Origin: a virus
DNA length: 64,000 nucleotides
Reading direction: 5' to 3' (one strand)
Virus record (IMG/VR): IMGVR_UViG_3300043774_000178
Location: 50,091 to 114,090 of that record
Under the pieces are notes generated by a model that saw only the letters and a program-made list of their open reading frames with translations, was not told where the DNA came from and searched no databases. The position numbers and the translations under genes are program-made. Position 1 is the stretch's first letter, and the number at the start of each line of letters is the position of its first letter. This document shows, in pieces, positions 583-50,559 of the stretch.

Positions 583-612
583 TTAGTATCTTAGTATAAT
601 AATCTTTAAGAA

Positions 613-35272: not shown

Positions 35273-35574
35273 AGTGCATCTTTTAAAGTATTAACTATTT
35301 CACTTCTATGATGAGCTCTACCCATTACTAGTATGAGGTATGTTGCTTCATTCATATGGTTGATTTGTGCAATAGCTTTCTCTAATGCAAGTGCAAAGTC
35401 TGATTCTGTTTTTAGAGCATTAAGACCAATCTCTATAATCTCATATAATCTGTCATCAGTTATGCCAAGCGCATCTGCAAGATTAGTGCTATCATCATTG
35501 ATGATTAGAAGCTTGTACTTTTGATTAGGAATGTACGTGTTTTCCTTTTTTTTTTTCTTGAATAAGTTGAACAT
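35269..35574 (-). CDS. Hypothetical protein
   Basis: 101-aa ORF. Confidence 0.6.
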   Translation of the reverse strand: MFNLFKKKKKENTYIPNQKYKLLIINDDSTNLADALGITDDRLYEIIEIGLNALKTESDFALALEKAIAQINHMNEATYLILVMGRAHHRSEIVNTLKDAL

Positions 35575-35869
35575 AAGTTTGTTTTTAAGGTGAATATATA
35601 GCTAAGCAGGAGAATTAATACTCTCCTGCTATAAAACAATATAGTTCTAACAAGAACCATAGAATGATGGATATCTTGTATCCTTTATTTAAGAGTGAAT
35701 CCATTGTCTACAAGAATTAGAATGTCTACTGTGTTTTTGTTGTTTCTTCACATGCTTACGATGCTTCTTGTAATTAAAGCCTCTGTGTTTGGGATACTTA
35801 TCCCGTGTGTTAGCAGAAGACACTACTGGTAATGCAATCAGAATTGCAATAATCAAATGTTTAATCATA

Positions 35870-36082
35870 TTATTTGTTTTTAGGGTTTAAATATTCAACA
35901 ATTTTTGTGGGCATACGTCCACTGTTTAATACTGCTATACCAGCAGTGATATCTGATTCAGCCCATATTGTAAAGACTTCTTCATTACTCCATACTTTAA
36001 ACGGTACAAGACCTGCAGTATGGAGTTCATACATCTGCTCAACATAGTCATCATAGTATTGGTCATATATAGGATCTTGCAT
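35870..36082 (-). CDS. Hypothetical protein
   Basis: 70-aa ORF. Confidence 0.55.
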   Translation of the reverse strand: MQDPIYDQYYDDYVEQMYELHTAGLVPFKVWSNEEVFTIWAESDITAGIAVLNSGRMPTKIVEYLNPKNK

Positions 36083-36324
36083 CAGTCATGACTTTTAGGT
36101 GTAACGCCTACTATTTGATCAGGTGTATATTCATCTAATGCTTTTATATAAGCTTCTATAGCTGTGTCAGCGTGTATAGTCACTACTGATACAGAGTATC
36201 TTTGACTACCAGGTTGTATTCTGACCAAATATGCTTGGTTATCTCCACCAAAGAATTCTCTAAATGCAGTTAGTATAGCTTCCTCAGAAGCCATGCCATT
36301 CATCATTAGAATAATCTTCTTCAA
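36082..36324 (-). CDS. Hypothetical protein
   Basis: 80-aa ORF. Confidence 0.5.
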   Translation of the reverse strand: MKKIILMMNGMASEEAILTAFREFFGGDNQAYLVRIQPGSQRYSVSVVTIHADTAIEAYIKALDEYTPDQIVGVTPKSHD

Positions 36325-36508
36325 GCATTTGCTCTAAGAAATTTTGAGCTATCTCACCATGAATCTCAAACTTAGGTTTTACAGGTGTAGCAACTTGCTT
36401 AGCTCTAATAAGCATTTTAAGAGTGTTACGGAGGTGATTAACGTCCATATCATCAACATTAATCTTTTGACCATTCCTCATGGTCCAATAAACTGGTTCT
36501 TTAATCAT
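36284..36508 (-). CDS. Small conserved phage protein
   Basis: YWTMRNGQKINVDDMDVNHLRNTLKML motif. Confidence 0.65.
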   Translation of the reverse strand: MIKEPVYWTMRNGQKINVDDMDVNHLRNTLKMLIRAKQVATPVKPKFEIHGEIAQNFLEQMLEEDYSNDEWHGF

Positions 36509-36523
36509 AATTATAAATTTAAG

Positions 36524-36790
36524 TTAGTAATCAAGTTTCTGTATTTCTTTTTGGATAAATTCTAGTCTTGCCTCTAGATTTCCATATTCATTAAATGCTA
36601 GTAATTCTGCATCACTAAGTTGTGCTTTATATTCTTCAACTGGTTTATTCATATAGTTACCTAAATGAATATATTCTTCTTGACTAATAAGATTTGATTC
36701 TAACAATCCTCTTAACCAGCCCATTATACCGCCTCTAAACTTATCTTTGTTTTGCACCATAAGTTTTAATAGTTCTTTGTCTGCTCTCAT
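36524..36790 (-). CDS. Hypothetical protein
   Basis: 88-aa ORF. Confidence 0.6.
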   Translation of the reverse strand: MRADKELLKLMVQNKDKFRGGIMGWLRGLLESNLISQEEYIHLGNYMNKPVEEYKAQLSDAELLAFNEYGNLEARLEFIQKEIQKLDY

Positions 36791-36824
36791 AATATTATTA
36801 ATTAAGTTTCTATAAGTTATGTTA

Positions 36825-37555
36825 AGTAAAACTACAAGTCAAACTCTGCTTTACAGTATGAGAGTTTATGCCTGAAACCTTGTAGTCTACTCAACAACCA
36901 GAAGTGTTAGCCCGTTGCTGTCCCTAGGGAGTGCTGGCATGTGGTTACTGGTTAAATACCCCTCTGCACTCAGTTGTAATAGTATTGGTTGTAGCTCAAT
37001 TTAAAAGTAAACATCATTCAAGATAGCGTACTGTGAACACTTCTATATATCTATAGAGCTATCACTATCTTATAGTTTAAATTAAATCATAACTAAGAGT
37101 TCTTATACTACTCTTAAATCAACTATTACAACTGCTCACCCTTGGGAAGTGAGAATGGTGCATTAGTACCTTGCATACTCTTACAAGGATTAGTTATTTC
37201 TGTCTTCCAGTGGTACTTCTACCTGCAATTTTAACTACTCCAATTGCATAAATTACTTTAAGTATAAAGCTTTCGCATTTCACTTATGCCTTTCTTACAA
37301 AGATGATTAGTCTTCTCAACCTTTACAGAGGTTTAGTTAGGAGTTACATACAGCTAACAAGTAATCATCTTGTTTCTTATAATCTTACTGTAATAAGATT
37401 AAATCACTGACATAAATAGTACTCTCACAAGGTTGCAACCCTTGAGGATGTAGTCATTCCATTAAGAGCCCACAGTAATAGACTGACGAGATCTACTAGT
37501 AGCATTTCCTTACCTGCTTGGATGAGAGTATAAGCAGTTTTATATCATGCTTAGG
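36825..37555 (-). ncRNA. Candidate large structured non-coding RNA (or cluster of RNAs)
   Basis: ~730 nt with no ORF of 60 aa or more, containing many long complementary pairings (see findings); strand inferred from context. Confidence 0.55.
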
Positions 37556-37563
37556 ATATGTCT

Positions 37564-37809
37564 TTAGATATTATCAATACATATTAATGAATCTAAGTCA
37601 GCGTATTTACCTGTGTATACTTTGCCCGACTGTGATTCTACTTTGATACTATCTTCAGAGACTTCAAGGAAATACTCTGTCTTAATATGCTTAGAAGTTT
37701 TGGGAGAATGATGCTCTACAGCATTATTGTGTCCTAATATACATCCTACAAAGAATGTAATAATAGCATAAATAGTGAATGCGAATGCAAGTTTACCATT
37801 GTTAATCAT
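37564..37809 (-). CDS. Membrane-anchored hypothetical protein
   Basis: MINNGKLAFAFTIYAIITFFVGCILG TM helix; upstream Tyr-rich extension judged spurious. Confidence 0.6.
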   Translation of the reverse strand: MINNGKLAFAFTIYAIITFFVGCILGHNNAVEHHSPKTSKHIKTEYFLEVSEDSIKVESQSGKVYTGKYADLDSLICIDNI

Positions 37810-37929
37810 ATAATTGAGATTTGAGTTACTGAAATTAATTCCCCGGAGAATATGTGGCTCTAATAGATAATAATAATAGTATAGATAGAGATAGAGATAG
37901 TAAGTAAGTATGTATAAAGATACTTGTAT

Positions 37930-38121
37930 ATACTGACCAATAGCCATATTCTTAAATTGTATGTGGAGTATGAGTAGGGATTATTCATACTGACCAAGGT
38001 TGTTGTAGATATGTGGTGGTTGATTATCAACTAGTTAGCTCTTAATGAATCTTAATTAATCCATAGTAACTTCAATAACATACTAGTTTATCACTAGTAT
38101 ATACTGACCATGTATTGACCA
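37930..38121. repeat. ATACTGACCA direct repeats
   Basis: Copies at 37930, 37987, 38101 and variant GTATTGACCA at 38112. Confidence 0.7.
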
Positions 38122-38239
38122 TACCTTTACAACCCCACTCTGTTTTGAGCTGTTTAACTTAAGCCGCAGACGAAGTCTGCTTAATAGCAAAAACAATAAC
38201 CCTACACTGTATATCAGTATAGGGTCATTGTGGATTGGG

Positions 38240-38635
38240 TTAAATCTCAGCCTCAGCTTGTTCCTCAATCACAAAGCCAAACATGGATGCAGTAGTAACT
38301 ACAGCACTTGCAAGATGGCTTAGGGTCCAAAGTATGATGAGCTCACCATTCTCATCGCGCTTAGCATCCTGTGTAGTAGGATCCCACACAGTACTAGCTT
38401 TAGCACTGTACTTACGTCCTACAACAAACTCTGCATCAGCATGGTTATAGGTACCTGCATAAACCTGTGCTGTAGTAGCAATGCCATCTACATCAATGGT
38501 TGCGAGTTTATACTCAGTACCATTAGAGTTGGTGAATGTTTGTGCACTAAGTGGTGCAACAAGCTTAGCACTTTTACGCGCTTCATAGCTAATTGTTCCA
38601 TTAGCTAAGTCTACTCTTTTCATTTTCATAATCAT
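38240..38635 (-). CDS. Early-region hypothetical protein (OB-fold-like?)
   Basis: 131-aa beta-rich ORF downstream of motif 38676. Confidence 0.65.
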   Translation of the reverse strand: MIMKMKRVDLANGTISYEARKSAKLVAPLSAQTFTNSNGTEYKLATIDVDGIATTAQVYAGTYNHADAEFVVGRKYSAKASTVWDPTTQDAKRDENGELIILWTLSHLASAVVTTASMFGFVIEEQAEAEI

Positions 38636-38728
38636 AAAAATTAGAAATTAAACAATCATTTATCCAACTTAGTTATGAGCTGTTTAATAAAAAAGCCGCA
38701 TGCGTAGCATGCTACAAGTGTGGTTAGC

Positions 38729-38826
38729 AATTCCCACTTGGGTATATATTATTACCCATTATGTGAATACAAATTCCCACTTGCTATTAAAACCTTCCCG
38801 TGTGAAGAGTTTGAAATTCCCACTTG
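38729..38826. repeat. Three AATTCCCACTTG repeats at exact 43-bp period
   Basis: Copies at 38729, 38772, 38815, separated by unique 31-bp spacers. Confidence 0.85.
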
Positions 38827-38843
38827 AGTAGAAAAAAAGGGGA

Positions 38844-39110
38844 TTATTCATCCCCTATTAATCTCATGTCTGTGGTTTGAGCTAAATCATTAAGATATTC
38901 AAAGCTCTGTTTCATACTCATAAACAGATTTGCTAATGTCCAATCACATGTTGTAGGATTTCCTGGTCCTTTATAGTAAGTACCATACTTCTTTGTTTTT
39001 GGATCATAAAAGTAGAACCCCATGATATCTATATTTCTACTCATGAATAGTTCTTTCATTTTCCAACGGAGATCCTTTAGCATTTCTAATTCTATTTCTT
39101 TCTTTGTCAT
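38844..39110 (-). CDS. Early cassette hypothetical protein
   Basis: Motif upstream, terminator overlapping stop. Confidence 0.65.
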   Translation of the reverse strand: MTKKEIELEMLKDLRWKMKELFMSRNIDIMGFYFYDPKTKKYGTYYKGPGNPTTCDWTLANLFMSMKQSFEYLNDLAQTTDMRLIGDE

Positions 39111-39170
39111 GATATATAGTTTTAGTTAATAATTGTGAGCTGTTTAAAGAGGTAAATAATAAAGGGGATA

Positions 39171-39392
39171 TTACTCCCCTTTATTAAGATGTTGTTTTAA
39201 CATCTTAATTAAATGCTCAGCTTGTTCATTGCTTAATTTAATTATAGCAATTTCAGCTGAATCAAATGACATAAAAAGTTCTAACTTTTCTTTACCATTT
39301 GATTGTACAGAAATACATACATCTTGCCCATCTAATTCATTTAAGCTTGATGATGTCTTTGCATTATTAATAATGTTGTTTAGTATATTCAT
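39171..39392 (-). CDS. Early cassette hypothetical protein
   Basis: Motif upstream, terminator overlapping stop. Confidence 0.65.
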   Translation of the reverse strand: MNILNNIINNAKTSSSLNELDGQDVCISVQSNGKEKLELFMSFDSAEIAIIKLSNEQAEHLIKMLKQHLNKGE

Positions 39393-39468
39393 AACAATAA
39401 ATTTTAATACTAGTTATGAGCTGTTTATATTTAAAAAAAGAAGAGGAGCCTAAGCCCCTCCACCTTAA

Positions 39469-39687
39469 TCAGATGTCATCCTCCATGTTGATGGTAGGAC
39501 GTAACTGTGCTATGTCTGCATCTTGATACAGAGAGTCACGGTACTTAACAAGTTCACGTAATGATAAGCAGTCCATAGCCTCAATGAGTGCTTGCTCTTG
39601 AGCCTTGTGTGGACGTAGGAATAGTATCCCTGCAATCTCCATTACTACATCATTTTTGTTTTCTTTTGCTTTAGTTAAATTAAACAT
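39469..39687 (-). CDS. Early cassette hypothetical protein
   Basis: Motif upstream; GAGGGGC-TTAG-GCTCCTC plus T-tract downstream. Confidence 0.65.
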   Translation of the reverse strand: MFNLTKAKENKNDVVMEIAGILFLRPHKAQEQALIEAMDCLSLRELVKYRDSLYQDADIAQLRPTINMEDDI

Positions 39688-39750
39688 GATAAATAAATTT
39701 TAAGGTTCATATTAGTTTTGAGCTGTTTATTCTGGTAAGTAAAAAGGGGA

Positions 39751-39945
39751 TTATATTTTCCCCTCTTCACTCAATTCTATGATAGTCATCAGTGCAGCAA
39801 AGATGGATATTAATCCCCCCACTACTACGTATCCTGATTCACTAGCAATAGTACTGAATCCACACTTAGGACATATTAAGAATATGAACCCAGCACCTGC
39901 AAGGTAATACCCGCAGAATGTTACTAAAAATAAAAATGTTTTCAT
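39751..39945 (-). CDS. Early cassette small membrane protein
   Basis: Two TM helices with CPKC loop. Confidence 0.65.
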   Translation of the reverse strand: MKTFLFLVTFCGYYLAGAGFIFLICPKCGFSTIASESGYVVVGGLISIFAALMTIIELSEEGKI

Positions 39946-39994
39946 AGCTTATAATTTTAAGTATAGTATATGAGCTGTTTAAAATAAATGGGGA

Positions 39995-40084
39995 TTAATA
40001 TCCAATCCCCATTGCAAAGCAATACAACTCTAGTAAGAACCAGAGTATGATTGCAATTTTGTAACCTCCATCTAGATACTTCAT
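39995..40084 (-). CDS. 29-aa hydrophobic peptide
   Basis: MKYLDGGYKIAIILWFLLELYCFAMGIGY; ATGA overlap with upstream gene. Confidence 0.5.
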   Translation of the reverse strand: MKYLDGGYKIAIILWFLLELYCFAMGIGY

Positions 40085-40236
40085 GATTCCTGTATAAATA
40101 GTGAAGAAACACCTGCAACTCCTGCAAGTGCAAATAGTACTAGCCACCACTGGCTTTCACCATCAATCAATGCACCGATTGAGATAGTCATTACACCAGC
40201 TAAATAAATCTGAACCAATCTTAATACTTTTTTCAT
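40081..40236 (-). CDS. 51-aa two-TM membrane protein
   Basis: MKKVLRLVQIYLAGVMTISIGALIDGESQWWLVLFALAGVAGVSSLFIQES; motif upstream. Confidence 0.6.
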   Translation of the reverse strand: MKKVLRLVQIYLAGVMTISIGALIDGESQWWLVLFALAGVAGVSSLFIQES

Positions 40237-40301
40237 GATACTTGTTTTATAGTTTAGATATAGTACATGAGCTGTTTATATTAAAAAGAAAGAAAAGAGG
40301 A

Positions 40302-40466
40302 TTACTCCTCTTTCTTTCTACACACGTTGAATATAACGTACTCTCCGGCAGTATGAATCTGATACTTCTTAAGAGTTTTAGCAGTCAACCATTGGTTAAG
40401 CTTTTGTTGCATCTGAGTTAACGCTTTGGAATCAGATGCAGGAATTGAAAATATATCTACTCGCAT
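40302..40466 (-). CDS. 54-aa early protein
   Basis: MRVDIFSIPASDSKALTQMQQKLNQW...; motif at 40495; terminator overlapping stop. Confidence 0.6.
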   Translation of the reverse strand: MRVDIFSIPASDSKALTQMQQKLNQWLTAKTLKKYQIHTAGEYVIFNVCRKKEE

Positions 40467-40838
40467 AATACAAAATTTAGTTTAAGTACAGTCTTGAGCT
40501 GTTATACCTATATGTATATAATATATAATACTTTGCGCGTGTATAATATATACATGAGCTTGGTTGTGTCACATGATACAACACATACTATATACAATAT
40601 AGTACCCATAGTAACTCACATAGCCTAAGCAAAGTATTGAGCTGTTGCATGCAAAACATTTTCTCCTGGAAAGAATTACTTGATTTATTCTATATATATG
40701 AGATGCCTTGCTGTAGAAGCATAGGGGGTGCCCCAGGTTTGCGCGGTGGGTGGGGTCTATATATTAAGGACCCATCACAATCTCTAGTATACTGTGAAAC
40801 CAAATACACCATAATAGTTTTTGATATATCTTTACACT

Positions 40839-41471
40839 ATGGCTTATATAGAACACAACTTCTTTCCTCTTAAGGTATTTGTTAGAAATGAGTATATGTA
40901 TCAACATACTAAGGGTGAAGGAGAGTTTACCCCGGGGGTAGTTATCTCAGTAAGATGTATGCCGGGACAAGCAGCATTGTTCCAGGTACTTTTAGAGAAT
41001 GGAGTACTTAGAGATAAGTTACCTTCTCATGCTTTACTTACCAAGGATACTCTCCCAGATCCTGATCTACCTTTTCATTATCTACAGATATGGAATTGCT
41101 TTTCATACAACTTTACTTTACTGCATCTATCATACTTATATGATACACCTGTAGAAGTATATATGAAGGATAGGAAGTTCTACCCAGGTAGTTATTATGG
41201 TACAATCAACTGGGGAGCTAATGACCTTAACTCAGACCTGTCTCTAGCAGAAGATCCTCTAGAACATAAGTCACATCATATTATATTACTTGATAATGGG
41301 CAGATAGCACTGCAACCTAACAATCGTATTAAATGGTCTGAACCTTCATTTGTAACTAAACCTTTTCCTGAGAGACCTGACTATCTAGTTAATAAGGATT
41401 ACTATAACTGTGAGGGTTATGAGAAATGGAATACTGAAGATTCAGAAAGAATGTTTTATGATAATGAATAG
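40839..41471 (+). CDS. Conserved phage hypothetical protein
   Basis: MAYIEHNFFP..VRNEY..DKLPSHA..LQIWNCFSY..EHKSHH..NGQIALQPNNRI. Confidence 0.75.
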   Translation: MAYIEHNFFPLKVFVRNEYMYQHTKGEGEFTPGVVISVRCMPGQAALFQVLLENGVLRDKLPSHALLTKDTLPDPDLPFHYLQIWNCFSYNFTLLHLSYLYDTPVEVYMKDRKFYPGSYYGTINWGANDLNSDLSLAEDPLEHKSHHIILLDNGQIALQPNNRIKWSEPSFVTKPFPERPDYLVNKDYYNCEGYEKWNTEDSERMFYDNE

Positions 41472-41599
41472 TATCTCATGGTGATACTGTTGCCATGATT
41501 TAAGTACCAGGAAGCATACCGTAAGATCTGCTCACTACACTGGTCATTAGTTACTGGGAAAGCAATTAAGGTACCTAAGATTGTATAACCAGTAACACA

Positions 41600-41644
41600 C
41601 CCAGACAAGTTTCTCTGATCAAGAATTACTGTCTGGGTTTTTTT
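41600..41644 (+). terminator. Intrinsic terminator
   Basis: CCCAGACA...TGTCTGGG followed by T7. Confidence 0.7.
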
Positions 41645-41755
41645 ATTATATTCGTAACCTATTTTGGTTATAGTAGTAGATTCAGTTAGGTACCAAGGAA
41701 TCCTCCATATATTGGGGGATTTTTTGTATATTATAGTGTATCTAATTTAAAAACT

Positions 41756-42616
41756 ATGGTAGAGAGAATATCTCGCAACATTCACAAATTTTCGTTTACT
41801 ACAAATAAAGGAGAAGTTGCTGTGCTTTCAGATGTACATTGGGACAACCCACATTGTGATAGAAAGCTTTTAAAAAAACACCTTGACTATTGTTTAGATA
41901 AAAACATTCCTGTAATTATAGTAGGGGATATGTTTTGTCTGATGCAAGGTAGAGGAGATAACAGAAGAAACAAATCTGATATTAGACCTGAGCACAATAA
42001 TGCTAGATACCTAGACTCAGTTGTAGAAACTGCTGTAGAATGGTTTACACCATATGCGGGTATTCTAAAGTTAATTACTTATGGAAACCATGAGACAGGT
42101 ATAATTAAGTATCAAGAAACAGATGTCTTACAAAGATTTGTTTCATTGTTTAATTATGCTAATAAGTCTACTGTAGAACTAGGTGGTTATGGTGGATGGA
42201 TCATTTATAGTTTTAAAGACAGTAGTGTTACTAATGCAAGTTTTAAACATAAATACTTTCACGGATCTGGTGGAGGCGGTATTGTAACTAAAGGTGCAAT
42301 CAACCTTACAAGAGCTCTAGAGATATATGAGAACTTTGATATATTCTCAATGGGTCATATACATGAGAACTCTTGTCGTACTGATGTTAGAGAATGTCTT
42401 GAAACAAATGCTGGTAACTATGAGATTAAAAAAAGATATATTCATCATTGTATCACAGGTACATATAAGGAGGAATATGGAGATGGTTATGGTGGATGGC
42501 ATATTGAGAGAGGTGCACCCGCAAAACCATTAGGTGGTAGGATACTTAAGATGTCTGTAAAAAGAGTAAATAAGAAAGCTGTTAAGATGGTAGATAGTAC
42601 CAGTTTTCCATTATAA
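41756..42616 (+). CDS. Calcineurin-like metallophosphoesterase
   Basis: SDVH, GDMF, GNHE, FHG, GHIH motifs. Confidence 0.88.
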   Translation: MVERISRNIHKFSFTTNKGEVAVLSDVHWDNPHCDRKLLKKHLDYCLDKNIPVIIVGDMFCLMQGRGDNRRNKSDIRPEHNNARYLDSVVETAVEWFTPYAGILKLITYGNHETGIIKYQETDVLQRFVSLFNYANKSTVELGGYGGWIIYSFKDSSVTNASFKHKYFHGSGGGGIVTKGAINLTRALEIYENFDIFSMGHIHENSCRTDVRECLETNAGNYEIKKRYIHHCITGTYKEEYGDGYGGWHIERGAPAKPLGGRILKMSVKRVNKKAVKMVDSTSFPL

Positions 42617-42640
42617 TTAGTATATTATAATAAAAGGACT

Positions 42641-42778
42641 ATGGCAAAGATTAAAGAGAACATTCTCAAACTAACAAGCAGCACTGTATCAAGACCAGGA
42701 GTACATGCTAAAACAAAAACTTCTAAACTTAAGTCTAGCAAACATTATAAAAAAAATTATCGCGGACAAGGTAGATAA
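42641..42778 (+). CDS. Small highly basic protein (45 aa)
   Basis: MAKIK...RPGVHAKTKTSKLKSSKHYKKNYRGQGR. Confidence 0.65.
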   Translation: MAKIKENILKLTSSTVSRPGVHAKTKTSKLKSSKHYKKNYRGQGR

Positions 42779-42905
42779 TCAAAATTATTTTTATATTTGT
42801 TCTGCTTTTGAACTTTGGTTAAATAATCGAATGGTGATGTAAACTCCTGGTAAATATCAGGAGTTTATTTTTTTGTATATATTTGTACAAACCAACATTA
42901 AGCAT

Positions 42906-43163
42906 ATGTCTTTAAAGTATGTTACTAAACCTGTAACTGTAGATGCAGTAATCTGGACAGGTGATAATCGTAATGAGATATGGAAACTCTGCACATTATG
43001 TTATTTTAATACTGACTTTAATACTAGTGATTTAAGACTAATGGTGCAGACTCAGGATGGAATTATAGAAGCTAATGTAGGAGACTATTTAGTAAAAGAT
43101 CAGTATGATACGTATCATGTATATACACCTACTAGGTTTCTAGAAAAATATGACAAAGCATGA
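42906..43163 (+). CDS. Widespread small phage protein (KP-V-V-[DE]-A-WTG...GDY family)
   Basis: KYVTKPVTVDAVIWTGDN...TQDG...ANVGDYLVK...FLEKYD. Confidence 0.7.
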   Translation: MSLKYVTKPVTVDAVIWTGDNRNEIWKLCTLCYFNTDFNTSDLRLMVQTQDGIIEANVGDYLVKDQYDTYHVYTPTRFLEKYDKA

Positions 43164-43239
43164 CTTACGTAGCAACAGTGTCAGGAGTAGTACCTGTATG
43201 GGTGTCCACAGCAACCTTTAATTTTAAATATAATATAGT

Positions 43240-43425
43240 ATGAGTCAAAACACACTACTAGTAGTTACAGAGGAGAATGGTAAAGTAGAAGTAAGTTTAA
43301 ACGTAAAAGATTTACCAGATGCTTTTGTAATTGGAATATTAGAACAAGTAAAGTTTAATATCCTAAATAGTCAAGAACCTGCAATTAAAGAAGCAATAGA
43401 ACCATCTAAAAAGTATGAAGCATGA
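43240..43425 (+). CDS. Hypothetical protein
   Basis: 61-aa ORF, VIGILEQVKF. Confidence 0.55.
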   Translation: MSQNTLLVVTEENGKVEVSLNVKDLPDAFVIGILEQVKFNILNSQEPAIKEAIEPSKKYEA

Positions 43426-43718
43426 GCATGGGAATAAGAGAGGTTAAAGTACCTACATTTGGTGAGCAGCTGATGGAGATAAGTATTGAGACTCCACCAA
43501 GCAACACAGTAGAAAAAGTAAAGCATATGTTTGCTGAGATAGCTGAGATTATAAAGAATGATTATCAGTCTAACAACAGACATCCATTAAAGAGTATGTT
43601 ATTTGATCATGCAGTAGGAGAAATAGTATCTGCACAAATGGCAGTAGAGAAAGTATTAACAATGAAACACTATACAGAAAATGAAAACACTGAGGGGAAA
43701 CAGGATACTGATAAGTAA
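43422..43718 (+). CDS. Acb2/Tad1-like helical hairpin protein (putative nucleotide-signal sponge)
   Basis: TFGEQL...VEKVKHMFAEIAEII...AVGEIVSAQMAVEKVLT resembles the Bacteroidota-type Acb2/Tad1-hairpin pattern. Confidence 0.55.
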   Translation: MSMGIREVKVPTFGEQLMEISIETPPSNTVEKVKHMFAEIAEIIKNDYQSNNRHPLKSMLFDHAVGEIVSAQMAVEKVLTMKHYTENENTEGKQDTDK

Positions 43719-43959
43719 GCCTGCAGTTAAAGAATCTTTTTTAGAATTATCTGATAAAGACAAAGCATTAATAGAAGCAGAACTAAGAAAGAGCTGGTCA
43801 TCACTAGATGTATATGCAGTAGGAGAAACTGTAAAAGATATATCTGCTGGTGATAAGGTTTATGTAAGAGCAACTGCATTAGAGTTATCTGAGAAGATTG
43901 AAGTAGATGGAGAAATGAAATTTATGATTCATGAACAAGATGTAGCAATTATTTGGTAA
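43681..43959 (+). CDS. groES: GroES-like co-chaperonin
   Basis: LRGNRILI, VYAVG, AGDKVYV, IEVDG...IHEQDVAII. Confidence 0.75.
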   Translation: MKTLRGNRILISKPAVKESFLELSDKDKALIEAELRKSWSSLDVYAVGETVKDISAGDKVYVRATALELSEKIEVDGEMKFMIHEQDVAIIW

Positions 43960-44076
43960 TTTTATTACTCTCTTAATTTTCTCGCTAGGTAAGGAATCCC
44001 CACAAAAATTAATCTGTGGGGATTTGTTTTGTACCAAACTTTTTACTATATTATAAGTGTAATATATATTTGTACT

Positions 44077-46131
44077 ATGGATATTCTAAATTTTATAAAC
44101 TGGAAAAGAAGCAAAAGACAAGTAACTTCTGCTCCACCAAACTCATTCATACCACTAGGTATTCCTGATGGAAAGAGAGATGATGATTATTTAGCAGTTA
44201 ACATCAGTGCTGCTGACTTTGCTGCTTCAGTAAGTACTGCTGGTCCACAAGGACCTCAAGGAGTACCTGGTCCCACTGGACCTACTGGTGCAACAGGAGC
44301 TGCTGGACCGCAAGGTGCACAGGGACCACAAGGTTTGCAAGGAACTCCTGGAGCTGTAGGACCTGCTGGTTTAAATTGGCAAGGTGTATGGTCAGCACTA
44401 AGTACATATGCTCCTGATGATGCAGTATCATTTAGTGGCTCTTCCTACTTTTGTTTAAATGCTGTAGGACCATCTGTTTCTGATCCTGCTACTGATACTG
44501 TTAACTGGGCCCTATTAGCAAACATTGGTGCTACTGGTCCCCAAGGAATTCAAGGTATACAAGGTATCCAAGGTGTAGCAGGTGCAACTGGTGCTGCAGG
44601 TCCCGCTGGTCCTCAAGGGATAGCTGGTCCTCAAGGTATTCAAGGTGTTGCTGGTCCCGTGGGTCCTGCTGGACTTAACTGGCAAGGAGTGTGGTCTAAC
44701 TTAGGAGTATATGCAGTAGATGATGCAGTATCTTTTGGAGGAGCCTCATACTTTTGCATTAATCCTGTAGGACCTTCTATACTTGATCCTTTTACAGATA
44801 ATACTAACTGGGCATTGCTTGCTCAACAAGGTGCAACCGGTCCTCAAGGTCCAATTGGATTAACAGGTCCTGCTGGAGCAACAGGTGCTACAGGTGCTCC
44901 AGGTCCTAATCAACTTATTATAGATAGTACTGTTATATCAGGTGGTAGTGGAAGAAGAGTTATTTTTGAAAGCTTATTGAATAAAGTAACTGAAGATGCA
45001 AGGTTTACATATACTAGTGCTTCAGGTACATTAAATAATACAGGTCTAGCTAACACAGCTACCAACTCTTCATTTGGAGCAAGTGCTTTACAAGGAACTA
45101 CAACTGGTCAGTTTCTTTCAGCTTTTGGTCTAGGGGCACTTCAGAATAATAATACTGGTCAATTCAATACTGCTGTAGGAAGTTATACTTGTAATACATT
45201 GACTACTGCAAGTAATAATACTGCTGTAGGTTATGCAGCTCTTAATAATAGTAATGCTGCTGACAATACAGGAGTTGGTAAATCTGCAGGAGCAGTACTT
45301 ACTACAGGTAAGTGGAATGTTGCAGTAGGTTCAGAATCAATGAATATTGGTGCTAACTCTTCTACTAAATCAGTAGCTGTAGGTTATAGAGCTTTATATT
45401 CCGCAACTTCTAACTCTGTTGCTGTAGGTTTCCAAGCATTGATGTCAAACCTTTCTGTTGAAATGGTAGCTGTTGGTGACTCTGCTTTAATGTCAAATAC
45501 TTCAGGTACCTCAAATACAGGAGTTGGATTTAGTGCACTTAAGTTAAACACTACAGGACTTAGCAATACAGCTTTAGGTTATAAATCTTTATCTTCAAAT
45601 ATAGTTGGAGCAGCTAATACTGCTGTTGGTTCTGGAGCATTACAATTAAATACTGCAAGTAATAACATAGCAGTAGGTTTTGATTCTTTATCACTTAATG
45701 TATCTGGAGCAAATAATACAGCAGTTGGTACCCAAGCATTGTTAAGTAACACTTCAGGTTCAAGTAACATTGCTCTTGGTTTTCAAACTTTAACAGATAA
45801 CACTATTGGAAATAATAACGTAGCAATTGGAGAATCCTCTTTAACAGATAACACTGGAGATGGGAATATTGCAATCGGTACACAAAGTGCTAGTGATAAT
45901 GTAACAGGTAATAACAATATTGTAATAGGTGCTAGTACTACAACTCAAGACTTTAACAACTCATTTATTCTAGGTAACTCTGCTCAAGCAACTGCAGATA
46001 ACCAAGTTGTTATTGGAACAAATGCAGATCCTTTAGGAGCAACTACTGCAGGAGCTGTTGTAGCAGATTGGAAATGGGAAGTTAGAATTAATGGTCAAAA
46101 CTTCTACATACCAATGAGACTTATTCCTTAA
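44077..46131 (+). CDS. Tail fibre / adhesin with collagen repeats, two CBM-like modules and NTAVG beta-roll repeats
   Basis: (GxY)n tracts; duplicated LNWQGVWS..Y..DDAVSF.G.SYFC module; many N-T-A-V-G repeats; start placed at MDILNF. Confidence 0.8.
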   Translation: MDILNFINWKRSKRQVTSAPPNSFIPLGIPDGKRDDDYLAVNISAADFAASVSTAGPQGPQGVPGPTGPTGATGAAGPQGAQGPQGLQGTPGAVGPAGLNWQGVWSALSTYAPDDAVSFSGSSYFCLNAVGPSVSDPATDTVNWALLANIGATGPQGIQGIQGIQGVAGATGAAGPAGPQGIAGPQGIQGVAGPVGPAGLNWQGVWSNLGVYAVDDAVSFGGASYFCINPVGPSILDPFTDNTNWALLAQQGATGPQGPIGLTGPAGATGATGAPGPNQLIIDSTVISGGSGRRVIFESLLNKVTEDARFTYTSASGTLNNTGLANTATNSSFGASALQGTTTGQFLSAFGLGALQNNNTGQFNTAVGSYTCNTLTTASNNTAVGYAALNNSNAADNTGVGKSAGAVLTTGKWNVAVGSESMNIGANSSTKSVAVGYRALYSATSNSVAVGFQALMSNLSVEMVAVGDSALMSNTSGTSNTGVGFSALKLNTTGLSNTALGYKSLSSNIVGAANTAVGSGALQLNTASNNIAVGFDSLSLNVSGANNTAVGTQALLSNTSGSSNIALGFQTLTDNTIGNNNVAIGESSLTDNTGDGNIAIGTQSASDNVTGNNNIVIGASTTTQDFNNSFILGNSAQATADNQVVIGTNADPLGATTAGAVVADWKWEVRINGQNFYIPMRLIP

Positions 46132-46134
46132 TGT

Positions 46135-46257
46135 ATGAATAAAGAAGAAGCAATTAGTATCATCGAGCAAGCATTAAATGCTGCCACAATTAAAGGAATC
46201 TATAGCCTGTCAGATGTACAGGCTATACTCCTTGCTTTAGAAGAACTTAAAAAGTAG
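46135..46257 (+). CDS. Small protein (40 aa), possible fibre chaperone
   Basis: MNKEEAISIIEQALNAATIKGIYSLSDV. Confidence 0.5.
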   Translation: MNKEEAISIIEQALNAATIKGIYSLSDVQAILLALEELKK

Positions 46258-46261
46258 AGTA

Positions 46262-46771
46262 ATGGATATTCTAAATTGGTTGTATCTCAAGAGACAACAG
46301 TTAATTAAAACAACTGTTAATAATCCTGATACAGATCTACTAGTATTAGGTGCAGAAGTACCCTTTACAAAGCGTGATGATGGTTATCAGAATTATGCAA
46401 TGACTGTTGCAGATTTCACTGACCAAATAAAAGGATACAAAAGCTATACTGCATTAATAACACAATCAGGTATTAATCCTCCAGTAGCTACTGTATTAGA
46501 AAATACACTAGATGTAAACATTACATTTACTTATGATGCTGTTGGTCAATATAGTGCTCTATTAGATCAAGCAATCTTCCCTGATCCAAATCAATATGTG
46601 ACTGTATCACAGAACATGTATGTAAATGGAGCAAATGAGATTTGTAATGTTAATGCTCTCCCGGTATTCTTTAATGCTATAGGTATAGTAAGTTATGAGA
46701 ATTTACTACCTGCAGATAGTATCATAGGAGATTACACACCTTGTGTACTTGAAATAAGAGTTTATAATTAA
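46262..46771 (+). CDS. Putative structural/fibre protein
   Basis: MDILNW N-domain paralogous to 44077; YKSYTALITQSG..PVATVLENTL. Confidence 0.65.
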   Translation: MDILNWLYLKRQQLIKTTVNNPDTDLLVLGAEVPFTKRDDGYQNYAMTVADFTDQIKGYKSYTALITQSGINPPVATVLENTLDVNITFTYDAVGQYSALLDQAIFPDPNQYVTVSQNMYVNGANEICNVNALPVFFNAIGIVSYENLLPADSIIGDYTPCVLEIRVYN

Positions 46772-46910
46772 TTTATTACAATGGAACCATTTTCTAAAGA
46801 AACCTTACTTGCAAAACTTATTGAAAAATATAGGTACCTAAATGATAAGGATGCTACTGCAAGAAAAGTATATGATCAAATAATTGAAAGCTATTCTAAA
46901 ATAGAAAATC

Positions 46911-47753
46911 ATGTTAAATAATCTTACAAATTTCTTCAATCTTATTAAAGGTAAGATGATGAAGACAACTCCTGAACCTGATGATTTAATTATCTTAGGT
47001 ACAAAGGATTCAAGGTACAACGGTGGATACAAACCCACTGGTATTAAAGTATCAGACTTTACTTCTGGTTTACAAGGTGATAGACTTGTAGCTGGTACAA
47101 GAGAAGTTGTGTTAACTGATAATGGTGGTGATGCAGAATTAACATTTAATGCAGGTACTGCAGTAATTCAAACTTCAAGTTCTGGAGCTGATCTATTTAT
47201 CAGAACATTAACTGGAGATGATATTATCCTTGAATCAGGAGATGATATTAGACTACAAGGTGATCAAGGTACTTATGATGCTGAGGCTGAGGGTGGAGAT
47301 ATAAATCTTTTTGCTGGAAATGGTTCTGATGGTAATACAGCTAATGCAGGTTCTGGTGGAGATGTCAGAATTGAAGCTGGAGCTGCAGGTAACAGTATAT
47401 CAGGCTCTCAAGGAGAAGGTGGGTTTGTAACTATTGAAGCTGGTTATACTACAGCGTCTGGTCTACCAGGTGGTAGTATAAATCTTTATCCAGGTAATAG
47501 TGATAGTAATATATATGGTGATGTTATTATCAGTGGTAACTTTACATGGGAATTTTCTACAAGAAACGCATCACTTTTATTTCCAGCAGTAACTCTAGCT
47601 ACATTACCAACTGCAGTTTCAGTACCTGGAGCAAGAGCGATGATTGCTGATTCTAGTGTAGCTGCATCAGGTAACTTTGGTGCTATTGCTGCAACTGGTG
47701 GTGCTAATATAGTTCCTGTATTCTCAGATGGTGTAGATTGGTTAATAGGATAA
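46911..47753 (+). CDS. Putative tail fibre/spike protein
   Basis: Gly-rich GGDI/GGDV repeats; C-terminal VPVFSDGVDWLIG. Confidence 0.65.
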   Translation: MLNNLTNFFNLIKGKMMKTTPEPDDLIILGTKDSRYNGGYKPTGIKVSDFTSGLQGDRLVAGTREVVLTDNGGDAELTFNAGTAVIQTSSSGADLFIRTLTGDDIILESGDDIRLQGDQGTYDAEAEGGDINLFAGNGSDGNTANAGSGGDVRIEAGAAGNSISGSQGEGGFVTIEAGYTTASGLPGGSINLYPGNSDSNIYGDVIISGNFTWEFSTRNASLLFPAVTLATLPTAVSVPGARAMIADSSVAASGNFGAIAATGGANIVPVFSDGVDWLIG

Positions 47754-47765
47754 TAAATAGAAATT

Positions 47766-48146
47766 ATGTCAATAGGAAATTTAAAAGATTCAGGTAACCA
47801 AGGTAATAACTTTCCCTTTCAACTCAAAGTATTACAAGGGTTACAAGCAGTGTTAGATAATAATTGTTGTGTAGATATACTTGCAGTATTATCAGATATA
47901 GATGTCAAATTAACACCTCTTGAAAGGACTCCAGATGTAATTAGTACAACAGGATCAGGAACAACACCAGTAGGTGCCTATAGCGTATCTATTGCAAATG
48001 TAGGTGCATCAGCTGGAATAGTTAACGGACAATCAATACCAGCAGGTACAGTACTTAACTTTGATGCAGGAGTATTAAATAATACACTTCGTACTCTTGC
48101 ATATGATGCAACTGGTACAACATTTATAATTACATCACTTATTTAA
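47766..48146 (+). CDS. Putative structural protein
   Basis: 126-aa ORF in late operon. Confidence 0.6.
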   Translation: MSIGNLKDSGNQGNNFPFQLKVLQGLQAVLDNNCCVDILAVLSDIDVKLTPLERTPDVISTTGSGTTPVGAYSVSIANVGASAGIVNGQSIPAGTVLNFDAGVLNNTLRTLAYDATGTTFIITSLI

Positions 48147-49423
48147 TGGGTACTATAGTCTCATCTAGCGGAGCAAGTAGTTTTAGTATACTTAATGGTC
48201 TACCAATGCTTACAGATGCATTTGGTAGATTAAGAGTATCTAGTCCTTTAACACTATTTGATTCCTCTCATAGATATAAGGATAATGGTCTATGGAATAG
48301 TTCTACGGCTAGTGGTGGTACTGTAGTATTTAGTCCTAATGAAGGTTTAGTAAATTTAAATGTAAATACTACTAGTGGTTCTCAAGTACTTAGAGAGACA
48401 ACCAAAGTATTCTCATATCAACCAGGTAAGTCATTACTAGTAATGAACACATTTGTAATGGCTACTCCTCAAGATAATCTAAGACAAAGAGTAGGTTATT
48501 TTGGAACAGATAATGGTATATATTGCCAATTAGAAAATTTACCTAGACCTATAGTAAGTTTTGTAGAAAGAAGTCTAGTTACAGGAGCAGTTACAGAAAC
48601 AAGAATTAGTCAAAATGGTGGAACATATGGAGTAACTGATACTGGATGGAATGTGGATCGTTTAGATGGAGCAGGACCTTCAGGAGTTACTTTAGATATA
48701 ACCAAAGCTCAAATCATGTTTATGGATATTGAGTGGTTAGGTGAAGGGACTGTAAGAGTAGGATTTATTATTGATGGTAACTTTATAGTTTGTCATAAAT
48801 TCAATCATGCTAATCTAATTACATCCACTTATATTACTACAGCATCTCTTCCTTTAAGATATGAGATAACTAATTTAGATACTACAGCATCTCCTAGTAC
48901 ACTAAAACAAGTTTGTTCTAGTGTTATATCTGAAGGAGGTTATGAACTTAGAGGAGCTCAGTTAGCAATAGGTACACCTATTACATCACCTACAAGTTTA
49001 GCAGTTGCGGGTACATACTATCCTATTGTAAGCATAAAGCTTAGATCAGGATATTTAGACGCTGTAGTTATACTAACTGCATTATCTATTATGGGAGTGT
49101 CTACAGGTATATATAATTGGCAAATAATAGCTAGTGGTACCACAACCGGAGGAGCATGGGTTCCAGCTGCAGTAGATTCAGCTGTAGAATATAATATAAC
49201 AGGAACAAGCTTTGCAGGTGGTAGAATACTAGCATCTGGTTTTATTACATCTAGTACACAAGCATCGGTAAACTTAGATATACTTAAAGAAGCTTTATTT
49301 GCTTTTCAGCTTGAAAGAAATACTTTTACTAGTACTCCTTATGAGATTACATTGGTAGTAAGTGCTAGTACTAATACAGAACTTATTTATGCCTCAATGG
49401 ACTGGGAAGAAGTCAGTAGATAA
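48146..49423 (+). CDS. Putative structural protein (DAFGRLRVS family)
   Basis: DAFGRLRVSSP, YQPGKS, DIEWLG.G.VR.GF, SVISEGG. Confidence 0.7.
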   Translation: MGTIVSSSGASSFSILNGLPMLTDAFGRLRVSSPLTLFDSSHRYKDNGLWNSSTASGGTVVFSPNEGLVNLNVNTTSGSQVLRETTKVFSYQPGKSLLVMNTFVMATPQDNLRQRVGYFGTDNGIYCQLENLPRPIVSFVERSLVTGAVTETRISQNGGTYGVTDTGWNVDRLDGAGPSGVTLDITKAQIMFMDIEWLGEGTVRVGFIIDGNFIVCHKFNHANLITSTYITTASLPLRYEITNLDTTASPSTLKQVCSSVISEGGYELRGAQLAIGTPITSPTSLAVAGTYYPIVSIKLRSGYLDAVVILTALSIMGVSTGIYNWQIIASGTTTGGAWVPAAVDSAVEYNITGTSFAGGRILASGFITSSTQASVNLDILKEALFAFQLERNTFTSTPYEITLVVSASTNTELIYASMDWEEVSR

Positions 49424-49433
49424 CTTATAGATA

Positions 49434-50021
49434 ATGAGTACAAGAATAGATTTAAAAACACAGTGTGAGTCTTCATTAGGTTCTGAGTTAACAAAAACTG
49501 GACAAACAGTTTCATACCGCACAGGAGATGATGGAGATATAGAAGCTGGTAGAGATGTGAGTTTCTTAGTACTTCCTTCTAATAATCCATTTGGAAACAC
49601 TAATAGATTTACTGATGAGTTAGGTGGTCAAAGTTATGCAAATAACATAGTTATTGATTGGTCTACATATGACGGAACTGAAGTACTAGGTTATTACAGA
49701 ACTATATCACCAGTAGATGTTACTTGGAATGTAGCTATTGATTCAGCATTAGCTTTATCAGTTGGTTCTTATACCTCTGGTTGGAGACTTCCAAATAAAA
49801 GAGAAATGGAGAACATATTTAACTATGGTTTATCTCAATGTATGAACTATGCTCCATTTAATATAATAAACACTATATGGATTTCAACTACATATACTGC
49901 ATCCACAACACTAGCATATACAGCAACAGTTAGTTGGATTAATTTAAGTGCTAAGTCTGGTACTGGTGGTAGATATATTGGAGTTAGAAATTTTACAGTA
50001 ACAGGAACAATATTAACGTAA
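49434..50021 (+). CDS. DUF1566 (Lcl C-terminal, CLec-like) domain protein
   Basis: KTGQTVSY..GDDG, TWNVA, GWRLPNKREM, WIST. Confidence 0.75.
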   Translation: MSTRIDLKTQCESSLGSELTKTGQTVSYRTGDDGDIEAGRDVSFLVLPSNNPFGNTNRFTDELGGQSYANNIVIDWSTYDGTEVLGYYRTISPVDVTWNVAIDSALALSVGSYTSGWRLPNKREMENIFNYGLSQCMNYAPFNIINTIWISTTYTASTTLAYTATVSWINLSAKSGTGGRYIGVRNFTVTGTILT

Positions 50022-50023
50022 TT

Positions 50024-50260
50024 ATGGCAACTTATAAATTTCCAGAGTTTAATGTAGAGATAGTAAACCCTACAGTAACTATAAATATGAATACCATAGG
50101 AGATATGGCTATTGATCAACTGTTATCTGTAGATATAGTACTTTCTGTACCAGGAGCAACATTTGGTGTAAGAATGGAAAATATGCCATACGTTGATACA
50201 TGGGAAGATTCTGATGTACCTGGTATGGTAGATATTGCATTACAAGCATATGAAGTATAA
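50024..50260 (+). CDS. Hypothetical protein
   Basis: 78-aa ORF coupled to the DUF1566 gene. Confidence 0.6.
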   Translation: MATYKFPEFNVEIVNPTVTINMNTIGDMAIDQLLSVDIVLSVPGATFGVRMENMPYVDTWEDSDVPGMVDIALQAYEV

Positions 50261-50559
50261 TGGCAGAAGTAACACTACAAGGTACACTAGTAGTAGGACC
50301 AAATGAACTATTTAAATGTGCATCTGGTAAAACTGCTAAAGTAAAGTATATTAAACTTTACAATTCTATTGCTTACAATGTAACATTATCAAAGTTTGAC
50401 TTTGATATATCCAGTACCATAAATCTTTATTCATTAACTCTTGATCCAGGAGATTCTGTGTCAGATGATACTCAGTATTTACTTCAAGGAAAGGATAGTA
50501 TATCAGTAACTAATTCAGCAGTAAATACTACATACTTAATTTTACTTGATGTAGTATAA
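50260..50559 (+). CDS. Hypothetical structural protein
   Basis: 99-aa beta-rich ORF. Confidence 0.6.
   Translation: MAEVTLQGTLVVGPNELFKCASGKTAKVKYIKLYNSIAYNVTLSKFDFDISSTINLYSLTLDPGDSVSDDTQYLLQGKDSISVTNSAVNTTYLILLDVV

Follow-up and report, generated by a model that had tools for sequence, protein, structure and literature searches.

The window analysed here, a 64,000-nucleotide (nt) stretch of viral DNA (bases 50091-114090 of the IMG/VR record IMGVR_UViG_3300043774_000178), contains an array of small cassettes, each of which is headed by a copy of the same short sequence block. The array is real and highly non-random. The block and a box that follows it probably form a phage early promoter, a reading in which we have good confidence. 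The full statement, according to which the cassettes are early transcription units with a phage-specific promoter that is read by an injected virion polymerase, asks for more, and here the balance tips slightly towards acceptance. From the sequence, we infer that transcription starts at the signal and that the virion polymerase is its reader. The cassette genes presumably serve host takeover or anti-defence. The record has a size of 114,090 bp, is estimated to be 96% complete and stems from a divergent crAss-like freshwater phage. Its large terminase is about 25% identical to the terminases of Crassvirales and of flavobacterial crAss-like phages, and the PHROG matches in the genome comprise a DNA polymerase, a helicase, a portal protein, a terminase and a tail fibre. 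The genome consists of a plus-strand structural arm, a minus-strand arm in which small genes precede the replication genes, and another plus-strand block. The array forms the very head of the minus-strand arm and is divergent from the plus-strand PHROG 3704 gene.

The 9-mer TGAGCTGTT (plus strand; AACAGCTCA when read on the minus strand) occurs in nine exact copies within window positions 38146-40646, all of which have the same orientation. The copies start at positions 38146, 38676, 39136, 39417, 39719, 39971, 40268, 40495 and 40638. Dinucleotide-preserving shuffling of the window (n = 100) gave an expectation of 0.8 +/- 0.84 copies with a maximum of 3, and none of the 100 shuffles yielded nine. 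A scan of the full 114,090-bp genome recovered these nine copies only, and the reverse orientation was not found. Thus, the nine copies in one orientation that the original prediction had noticed, with none elsewhere in the window, were confirmed, and the genome-wide scan that it had proposed restricts the motif to the array and to one strand within 114 kb. Seven of the nine copies extend to AAACAGCTCA, and no extra copies with one mismatch were found inside the array. A degenerate copy with two mismatches, CCAAGCTCA, is located at 40555-40563 and is probably the copy previously described as partial. The block is neither palindromic nor an inverted repeat, and it does not have the short inverted repeat with a 5-7 bp stem and a 3-nt loop that characterises N4-type hairpin promoters.

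A typical minus-strand unit consists of a hairpin with a T-tract, a few bases, the motif, an AT-rich leader of 24-40 nt, an ATG, a small open reading frame (ORF) and the next hairpin. This order had been proposed before and holds for most units. The ORFs encode proteins of 54, 51 (plus an overlapping one of 29), 64, 72, 73, 88 and 131 amino acids (aa). A strict hairpin with T-tract is present within 45 nt ahead of six of the window copies, and the copy at 38154 is preceded by a hairpin with a weak T-tract. In several units, the stop codon lies within the loop of the terminator hairpin (GGGG..TAA..CCCC). The description of the units as single-gene cassettes fits most of them, but two deviate from the plan: behind the first copy (40646) there is only a doubtful 33-aa ORF, and about 200 nt behind the last copy (38154) contain no ORF. 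Judged by eye, three of the ORF products (51, 29 and 64 aa) are small hydrophobic peptides, which agrees with the membrane peptides that had been predicted. The cassette ORFs of the window have no match in Pfam or PHROG, and a PHROG search with the cassette proteins of one relative gave no match either. Moreover, a blastn comparison of the array with GenBank phages was without a match and an Rfam search of window positions 35500-41500 returned nothing above threshold.

Related loci were fetched from IMG/VR via the neighbouring PHROG 3704 protein and then via the polymerase core, and 11 further whole virus records were added to the comparison. The array statistics are based on 35 related arrays with 252 sites. 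An ORF of at least 25 aa was detected at 198 of these sites, with a median distance of 31 nt (interquartile range 28-33) from the end of the block to the ATG. The ORFs have a median length of 70 aa and 96% of them do not exceed 130 aa. A hairpin with a T-tract occurs in the 45 nt upstream of 69% of the sites, compared with 3% of the shuffled controls, and the stem ends at a median of 11 nt before the block. At the first sites of the arrays, the upstream hairpin is missing in 20 of 34 cases. Downstream of the block, most types carry a box with the consensus ACTAnTnTT(A/G)A, whose offset of 1-4 nt is constant within a type; in the lineage represented by contig L053, the box is ACCTnTnTTGA. When the types were aligned on the box by eye and without a formal model, A and C at -10/-9 appeared near-constant and the variation was found mostly between about -8 and -3.

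The 9-11 nt upstream block occurs in at least 17 lineage-specific types that have the same architecture and are identical across the copies of a given genome. The type found in the window, AACAGCTCA, is common to few related contigs (L053, L128, L140, L159, L184 and L191). Most other relatives have the array at the corresponding place but with a different word; these words include ATACAGCT, (T)AACTGTGT, GTACTGTGT, AACCTCTCA, AACATCTT, TACTTCTTT, TACCTCTT, ACCATTTT, ACTTTTAT, CAACTTTAT, TGTTGCAAC, ATCCCCTTG, ATCACCTTG, AATCTTTAA, GCCGCTTTT, TTTACAACC, TTCTAGCCC and TCTCCACTT. In whole genomes, the block words are concentrated in the array, with at most scattered matches elsewhere. Several comparisons illustrate how one type takes the place of another. 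For instance, the first cassettes of L043, L025 and L061 have homologous flanks around a block of 10-11 nt that reads AGTAACTGTGT, ATCACCTTGT or ATCCCCTTGT. The genomes G018 and G019, with a median protein identity of 85% and 96% identity in the polymerase core, carry GTACTGTGT at all 10 sites and TAACTGTGT at all 7 sites, respectively, and at least at one orthologous position identical terminators precede the differing blocks. Most informative of all, the L009 contig, which represents the near-isogenic relative, is collinear with the genome studied here over about 45 kb at 90-99.5% nucleotide identity, and only patches align at genome positions 87047-90838. The array of this contig contains seven copies of TACCTCTT, which is found nowhere else in its 48.5 kb, and the identity between its cassette genes and the window cassette genes is 41-84%. 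Judging from this alignment, the L009 array was evidently replaced as a module by recombination in the conserved flanks. Searches for a longer contig of the TACCTCTT phage returned the known contig only (viral scan) or the same contig and short ones (metagenome scan).

The gene content of the arrays is highly variable. The 198 cassette proteins fall into 82 clusters, of which 46 are singletons, and the 54-aa protein is the only product of the window genes that recurs in several other genomes. Several cassette families are found behind 5-12 different block types. Between arrays with the same block type, 67% of the points at which homology ends are no more than 45 nt from a block, compared with 27% at random positions; this comparison is descriptive because the array pairs are not independent. 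A clear case is provided by L012 and L013, which are identical through the terminator, the block and half of the leader and then continue with different genes. The terminator-plus-promoter junctions thus appear to be the places where relatives exchange cassettes. The original prediction had regarded the array as an integron-like library in which the shared motif permits cassettes to be gained or lost, and it had looked to relatives for swaps with breakpoints at the motif. Such swaps are reflected in the clustered segment ends, and the fixed gene content that would have spoken against the idea was not seen. The library-like turnover by cassette with junctions at the signal therefore stands, but neither an integrase nor an attC-like structure is present, the 9-mer is lineage-specific among the relatives, and each cassette has its own promoter and terminator, so that only part of the idea holds.

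The following arrangement would best account for these observations. The region would be an immediate-early module, that is, a row of autonomous transcription units heading the minus-strand early/replication arm. Each unit would be composed of three parts. The first would be a bipartite promoter made up of the 9-11 nt block, here (A)AACAGCTCA, and the clade-wide box ACTAnTnTT(A/G)A located 2-3 nt later. The second part would be a short AT-rich leader with one small ORFan gene or a non-coding RNA, the ATG being placed about 30 nt past the block, and the third an intrinsic terminator consisting of a hairpin and a U-tract, often with the stop codon in the loop. The upstream block would act as a specificity element for a phage-lineage-specific factor that is present at the start of infection, and exchange of cassettes at the junctions would generate a fast-turning library of small early genes. 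The promoter reading is favoured because the signal follows the terminator by about 11 nt, precedes the ATG by about 30 nt, is strand-specific, is confined to the early arm and also heads non-coding units. Since the stem ends at a median of 11 nt before the block, there is no space for a separate promoter between the two. Moreover, the block is lineage-specific yet uniform within a genome, which therefore argues for a reader that is phage-specific and present at DNA entry.

The signal also differs from the promoters of the presumed hosts. The consensus of Bacteroidota primary-sigma promoters is TTTG at -33 and TAnnTTTG at -7. On the array (minus) strand, TAnnTTTG is absent from positions 36750-42780, and neither a -35/-10 nor a Bacteroidota -33/-7 pattern was found there. 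Matches to the -7 consensus, TATATTTG, are present on the plus strand at window positions 42792, 42878, 44065 and 53594 and at genome position 12244, where they lie 5-107 nt upstream of structural/late genes of that strand. These boxes are probably host-polymerase promoters of the late programme. If so, the split between the array signal and TATATTTG mirrors the division of early and late genes between phage and host polymerase in the Cellulophaga phage phi14:2. The predicted role of the motif as the phage early promoter is thus supported by its uniqueness, its strand specificity, its position after terminators, its dissimilarity to the host box and its conserved architecture; the part of the prediction that names the polymerase as the reader is one that we still infer.

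The sole candidate found for the reader is an injected virion RNA polymerase of the gp66 type, a 4075-aa protein with a DFDVD motif that is encoded at genome positions 38445-50672. A polymerase core profile built from six clade members aligned with gp66 of phi14:2 over 502 columns with superposed catalytic motifs (hhalign probability 97.6%, E 3e-12); a profile search of PDB sequences with the polymerase core gave no match. No sigma-70 region 2 or 4 domains were found in the genome, and no T7-type polymerase was found there by a T7-family search that had no positive control. The recourse of the original prediction to a crAss-like virion polymerase is therefore supported by the genome, which encodes a gp66-type enzyme and no detectable sigma factor. 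gp66 is the virion RNA polymerase of phi14:2 and has been shown to transcribe early genes. Mapped early transcripts are available for no other crAss-like phage; in phi14:2, the phage polymerase reads the early genes and the host polymerase the later ones, and the early region gives rise to abundant non-coding RNAs. The promoter of gp66 is undefined, and the early transcripts had no common motif in the study that mapped them.

A natural experiment agrees with the polymerase as the reader. The genome G004 shares 88-99% aa identity with G001/G017 in replication, packaging and head genes, its polymerase is only about 40% identical and its block type differs. It was also observed that G004 (80059-117546 and 549-6200) carries an unrelated block of giant virion proteins including the RNA polymerase, with 21-55% identity to G001/G017. 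By its alignment pattern, this block is a modular replacement of the set of ejected proteins.

Several findings weigh against the proposed promoter and its reader. G004 and G023 both use AACATCTT, and their polymerases are 40-54% identical without any locally similar segment. Across 45 genome pairs, the distance between blocks correlates with the distance between polymerases with a Spearman rho of 0.27, compared with values of -0.10 to 0.33 for unrelated proteins; in this Mantel-like analysis of 14 proteins, all correlations were weak. The window and the L053 lineage have AACAGCTCA in common on distant backbones. The early region of phi14:2 contains no comparable repeated block or array, only the leader-like word TAAAACTA. 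Furthermore, the identity of the blocks within a genome could partly result from gene conversion between cassettes and not from selection alone. The polymerase gene is in none of the five other AACAGCTCA phage contigs, the TACCTCTT phage contig does not reach it either, and the one close relative of the window polymerase (84-87%) is on a contig that ends before the array.

Two other candidates for the reader were rejected. The first was a protein encoded in the array: among proteins detectable by tblastn, the window has no cassette protein in common with the other AACAGCTCA arrays. The second was a guide RNA pairing with the block, which was discarded since complementary 7-mers in the own module did not exceed control levels, the palindromic type excepted. 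It may be tentatively proposed that the block is a specificity code that is read directly by the crAss-type two-barrel polymerase, so that at least 17 orthogonal promoter/polymerase pairs would exist, although we regard this strong form as doubtful. If it were true, array-wide switching, stepwise or by module replacement, would create transcriptional incompatibility groups. Such incompatibility would insulate the immediate-early programme from co-infecting relatives and parasites, and the junctions would let early genes move between the types.

The main rival assumes that the host RNA polymerase fires the units from the shared AT-rich box, which would serve as a -10/-7-like element with the T-tract of the preceding terminator as an upstream element, and that the block is the operator of a phage-encoded repressor or activator that times the early genes or shuts them off, comparable to lambdoid immunity operators. 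We consider this to be unlikely, but it deserves attention: it would explain why the box is constant across types and the upstream block alone varies, why the block type does not cleanly track the polymerase and why array and block can be exchanged as one module while the backbone stays near-isogenic. However, the box mismatches TAnnTTTG, which the same genome does have in front of its late genes, and the first copies often lack a T-tract. Moreover, no protein specific to arrays of the same type was found, the window and L053 sharing the block and no cassette protein, and none of the G004 proteins stands out by its similarity to the G023 counterpart. An operator alone would also leave unexplained why every unit should possess a non-consensus host promoter.

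Two further explanations stand well behind this rival. The block could be an RNA-level signal in a long early RNA that starts at a promoter further upstream and has leaky or anti-terminated hairpins. A phage-specific protein would recognise it, much as in the T4 RegB/RegA or nut/put systems, and the site would serve processing, anti-termination or translational control. The fixed distance of about 30 nt to the start codons, the invariable location on the coding strand and the position directly after each terminator, where anti-termination or re-loading could act, are compatible with this idea. Nevertheless, it is rather improbable, as strong canonical terminators follow nearly every ORF of 50-130 aa and make a polycistronic design unlikely, no promoter candidate except the motif exists upstream of copy 1, the block heads non-coding units too and the module contains no complementary RNA partner. 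Finally, the idea that the block is primarily a recombination site, the core of an integron- or shufflon-like cassette exchange, either site-specific or driven by homology, with the expression signals being secondary, would suit the highly variable cassette content, the breakpoints within 45 nt of the block and the recurrence of the hairpin GGGGAGTAATCCCC in different cassettes and genomes, but it is very improbable given that no tyrosine integrase (PF00589) was found in the genome in a search with matching positive controls, that the block lacks an inverted repeat or attC-like structure, that its fixed spacing to the ATG points to expression and that the same gene families stand behind different blocks, exchange therefore being independent of block identity. 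A phage early promoter thus remains the preferred reading of block and box, and the parts of the array in the window, all on the minus strand, are as follows:

40638-40646: motif copy 1 (cAACAGCTCA), which opens the array at 190 nt from the divergent fdx-like gene and is not preceded by a terminator; the next 143 nt contain only the doubtful 33-aa ORF and the degenerate copy CCAAGCTCA.
40495-40503: motif copy 2, 28 nt before the ATG of the 54-aa ORF.
40302-40466: ORFan of 54 aa; homologues in relatives are 38-74% identical (aa) and stand behind five other motif types.
40293-40314: terminator (hairpin and T-tract); the 54-aa ORF has its stop codon in the loop.
40268-40277: motif copy 3 (AAACAGCTCA), 31 nt before the ATG.
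39995-40236: one unit with two hydrophobic ORFs of 51 aa (40081-40236) and 29 aa (39995-40084), overlapping in ATGA.
39987-40013: terminator (hairpin and T-tract).
39971-39980: motif copy 4, 25 nt before the ATG.
39751-39945: hydrophobic ORF of 64 aa; the near-isogenic relative has a cassette gene with 84% identity to it behind TACCTCTT.
39741-39764: GGGG..TAA..CCCC hairpin and T-tract, stop codon in the loop.
39719-39728: motif copy 5, 31 nt before the ATG.
39469-39687: ORFan of 72 aa.
39442-39461: terminator (hairpin and T-tract), conserved in sequence in the near-isogenic relative, where the next motif is different.
39417-39426: motif copy 6, 24 nt before the ATG.
39171-39392: ORFan of 73 aa.
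39157-39186: hairpin with the stop codon in the loop and a T-rich tail.
39136-39145: motif copy 7, 25 nt before the ATG.
38844-39110: ORFan of 88 aa, 51% identical (aa) to a cassette gene in L013.
38838-38856: terminator (hairpin and T-tract) of the 88-aa unit.
38719-38826: three repeats containing CAAGTGGGAAT with a period of 43 nt, between the terminator and the next hairpin, with no motif ahead.
38698-38712: short hairpin with a UACG loop, followed by GGCTTTTTT.
38676-38685: motif copy 8, 40 nt before the ATG of the 131-aa ORF.
38240-38635: ORFan of 131 aa with only three close homologue clusters among 5.8 billion proteins.
38172-38231: long hairpin (38193-38231) and T-tract, then a short hairpin with a UUCG loop (38172-38186).
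38146-38155: motif copy 9, the last one; about 200 nt that contain no ORF come next, then a 127-aa ORF and an ORF-free region.

The distal end of the array has several additional features. The repeats at 38719-38826 are 98% identical in the near-isogenic relative despite the replaced array around them, and they are absent from the other relatives that were fetched. They could be protein-binding iterons or part of an RNA. The ORF-free stretch of about 200 nt after the last copy contains three TTGGTCAGTAT repeats (37930-38111, minus strand), the 127-aa ORF behind it has an odd start rich in Tyr and Leu, and past this ORF an ORF-free stretch of about 730 nt (36825-37555, minus strand) gave no Rfam match. 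In most arrays examined, a short hairpin stands ahead of each of the last two motif copies; its loop is usually a tetraloop (UUCG, UACG and similar). These hairpins, which occur across block types and in the window belong to two of the nine copies (38698-38712 and 38172-38186), are followed by an AGCTTT-like sequence and not by a long T-tract.

Among the 251 sites considered for terminators, 60 have a GGGG..TAA/TAG..CCCC hairpin, whose 5' arm then encodes the last residues of the protein (Gly-Glu and similar). The stop-plus-terminator hairpin GGGGAGTAATCCCC is identical in 11 loci, in different cassettes and genomes. The stop-in-loop terminator thus looks like a portable stop-plus-terminator module. 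Moreover, a non-coding cassette of about 95-130 nt (GATATAA..GGAATGTT..CCTGGGG.., with its own terminator) is conserved behind three block types, and no equivalent was seen in the window. This cassette is a candidate for a small RNA produced from the same class of promoter. It was located at the following sites:

L053: complement 4213-4311 (array strand 4557-4655).
L323: 1231-1360.
L012: complement 6279-6375 (1626-1722 when counted from the fdx-like gene).
L140 and L191: also present.

A second repeated word exists away from the early array, namely CATTCTATTCTGATTT in G001 (104537-106100) and TCTATTCTG in G002 (75020-79072), in clusters of 5-6 copies on one strand. These clusters may represent a second class of promoters or a set of regulatory sites. 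In G003 and G018, which have direct terminal repeats, the array is located about 19-21 kb from an end; the positions are inconsistent and therefore allow no inference on which DNA enters first. The gene next to the array (window 40839-41471, plus strand) encodes the PHROG 3704 protein, which carries the label 'ferredoxin' and is 90-99% identical in the 80 relatives listed of the 444 detected. In contrast, the terminases of five whole relatives are about 76% and the replication proteins 50-65% identical. The PHROG 3704 gene is missing from 23 of the 30 other polymerase-bearing contigs of the clade. In its behaviour, it resembles an accessory gene that has spread recently.

Among published systems, the promoter-early stem-loop (PeSL) cassettes of the T4-type phages RB49 and phi1 come closest in architecture and in the way they evolve. 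In these phages, a strong early promoter is combined with a stem-loop terminator in hyperplastic regions (Arbiol et al. 2010, PMC2839356). Recombination at PeSL elements shuffles small non-essential ORFans between related phages (PMC2839356). Both systems have in common that the promoter adjoins the terminator, that the genes are small ORFans and that recombination takes place between modules, with which the clustering of breakpoints described here fits. However, PeSL promoters are sigma-70-like, are read by the host and do not switch type, whereas the signals described here are non-host-like, lineage-specific and switched across the whole array. Unlike PeSL cassettes, the units are also arranged in a single contiguous array with which the early arm begins.

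In presumed mechanism, the promoters of virion RNA polymerases are closest. The Thermus phage P23-45 has 14 pre-early start sites with one strongly conserved AT-rich motif, which is kept in relatives with the polymerase and missing in relatives without it (10.1101/2022.12.01.518664). As in P23-45, a phage-specific motif is found at the genes presumed to be expressed first, a virion polymerase is encoded and the units are terminated by hairpins. However, the polymerase of P23-45 is fused to the tape measure protein. The promoters P1-P3 of the N4 virion polymerase are DNA hairpins. In contrast, the block described here is not an inverted repeat, and the nearby hairpins vary, carry T-tracts or stop codons and appear to act as terminators of the preceding unit. 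In the T7 group (T7, T3, SP6 and K11), promoters of about 20 bp combine a variable specificity block with a conserved initiation-proximal block; the copies are near-identical in each genome, related phages differ in the block and covariation of promoter and polymerase is proven. The array resembles this group in having a variable upstream block beside a conserved box and in being uniform within a genome. However, the T7 polymerase is a single-subunit Pol I-like enzyme and not a two-barrel enzyme, and the proof of covariation pertains to the T7 group only.

Small-gene units with their own promoter and terminator are also known from the host-takeover module of SPO1 and from phage morons, which consist of tiny early genes or single genes under host sigma-A promoters. 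The array is similar in this respect; to our knowledge, neither a lineage-specific signal nor type switching has been described for them. With integron cassettes, the array shares the ordered row of single genes and the rapid gain and loss. Unlike integrons, it has no integrase, no attC and no common Pc promoter, and its boundaries are GC-rich terminator hairpins and a direct-repeat block.

The crAss-like phages are among the most abundant phages known, and their injected RNA polymerase is structurally unusual. In the library that could be searched, no paper was found in which the early promoter of a crAss-like virion polymerase is defined. The array makes such a promoter directly testable as a defined sequence of about 22 nt. 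Furthermore, the relatives constitute a natural panel of variants, in which the same genes, leaders and terminators stand behind different blocks, and which could be used to map specificity determinants; the panel of natural blocks might also yield orthogonal transcription parts. The array also marks the immediate-early genes, a large and fast-turning pool of small ORFans and non-coding RNAs that are likely to act on the host in the first minutes of infection. What is new in this analysis is the survey across the clade, with at least 17 block types in one shared scaffold, the module replacement in a near-isogenic backbone and the negative result on covariation with the polymerase. Measured against the known systems, the best available placement suggested by the sequence comparisons is that the array consists of phage early promoter-terminator cassettes of a known sort, to which the switching of signal types is the added feature.

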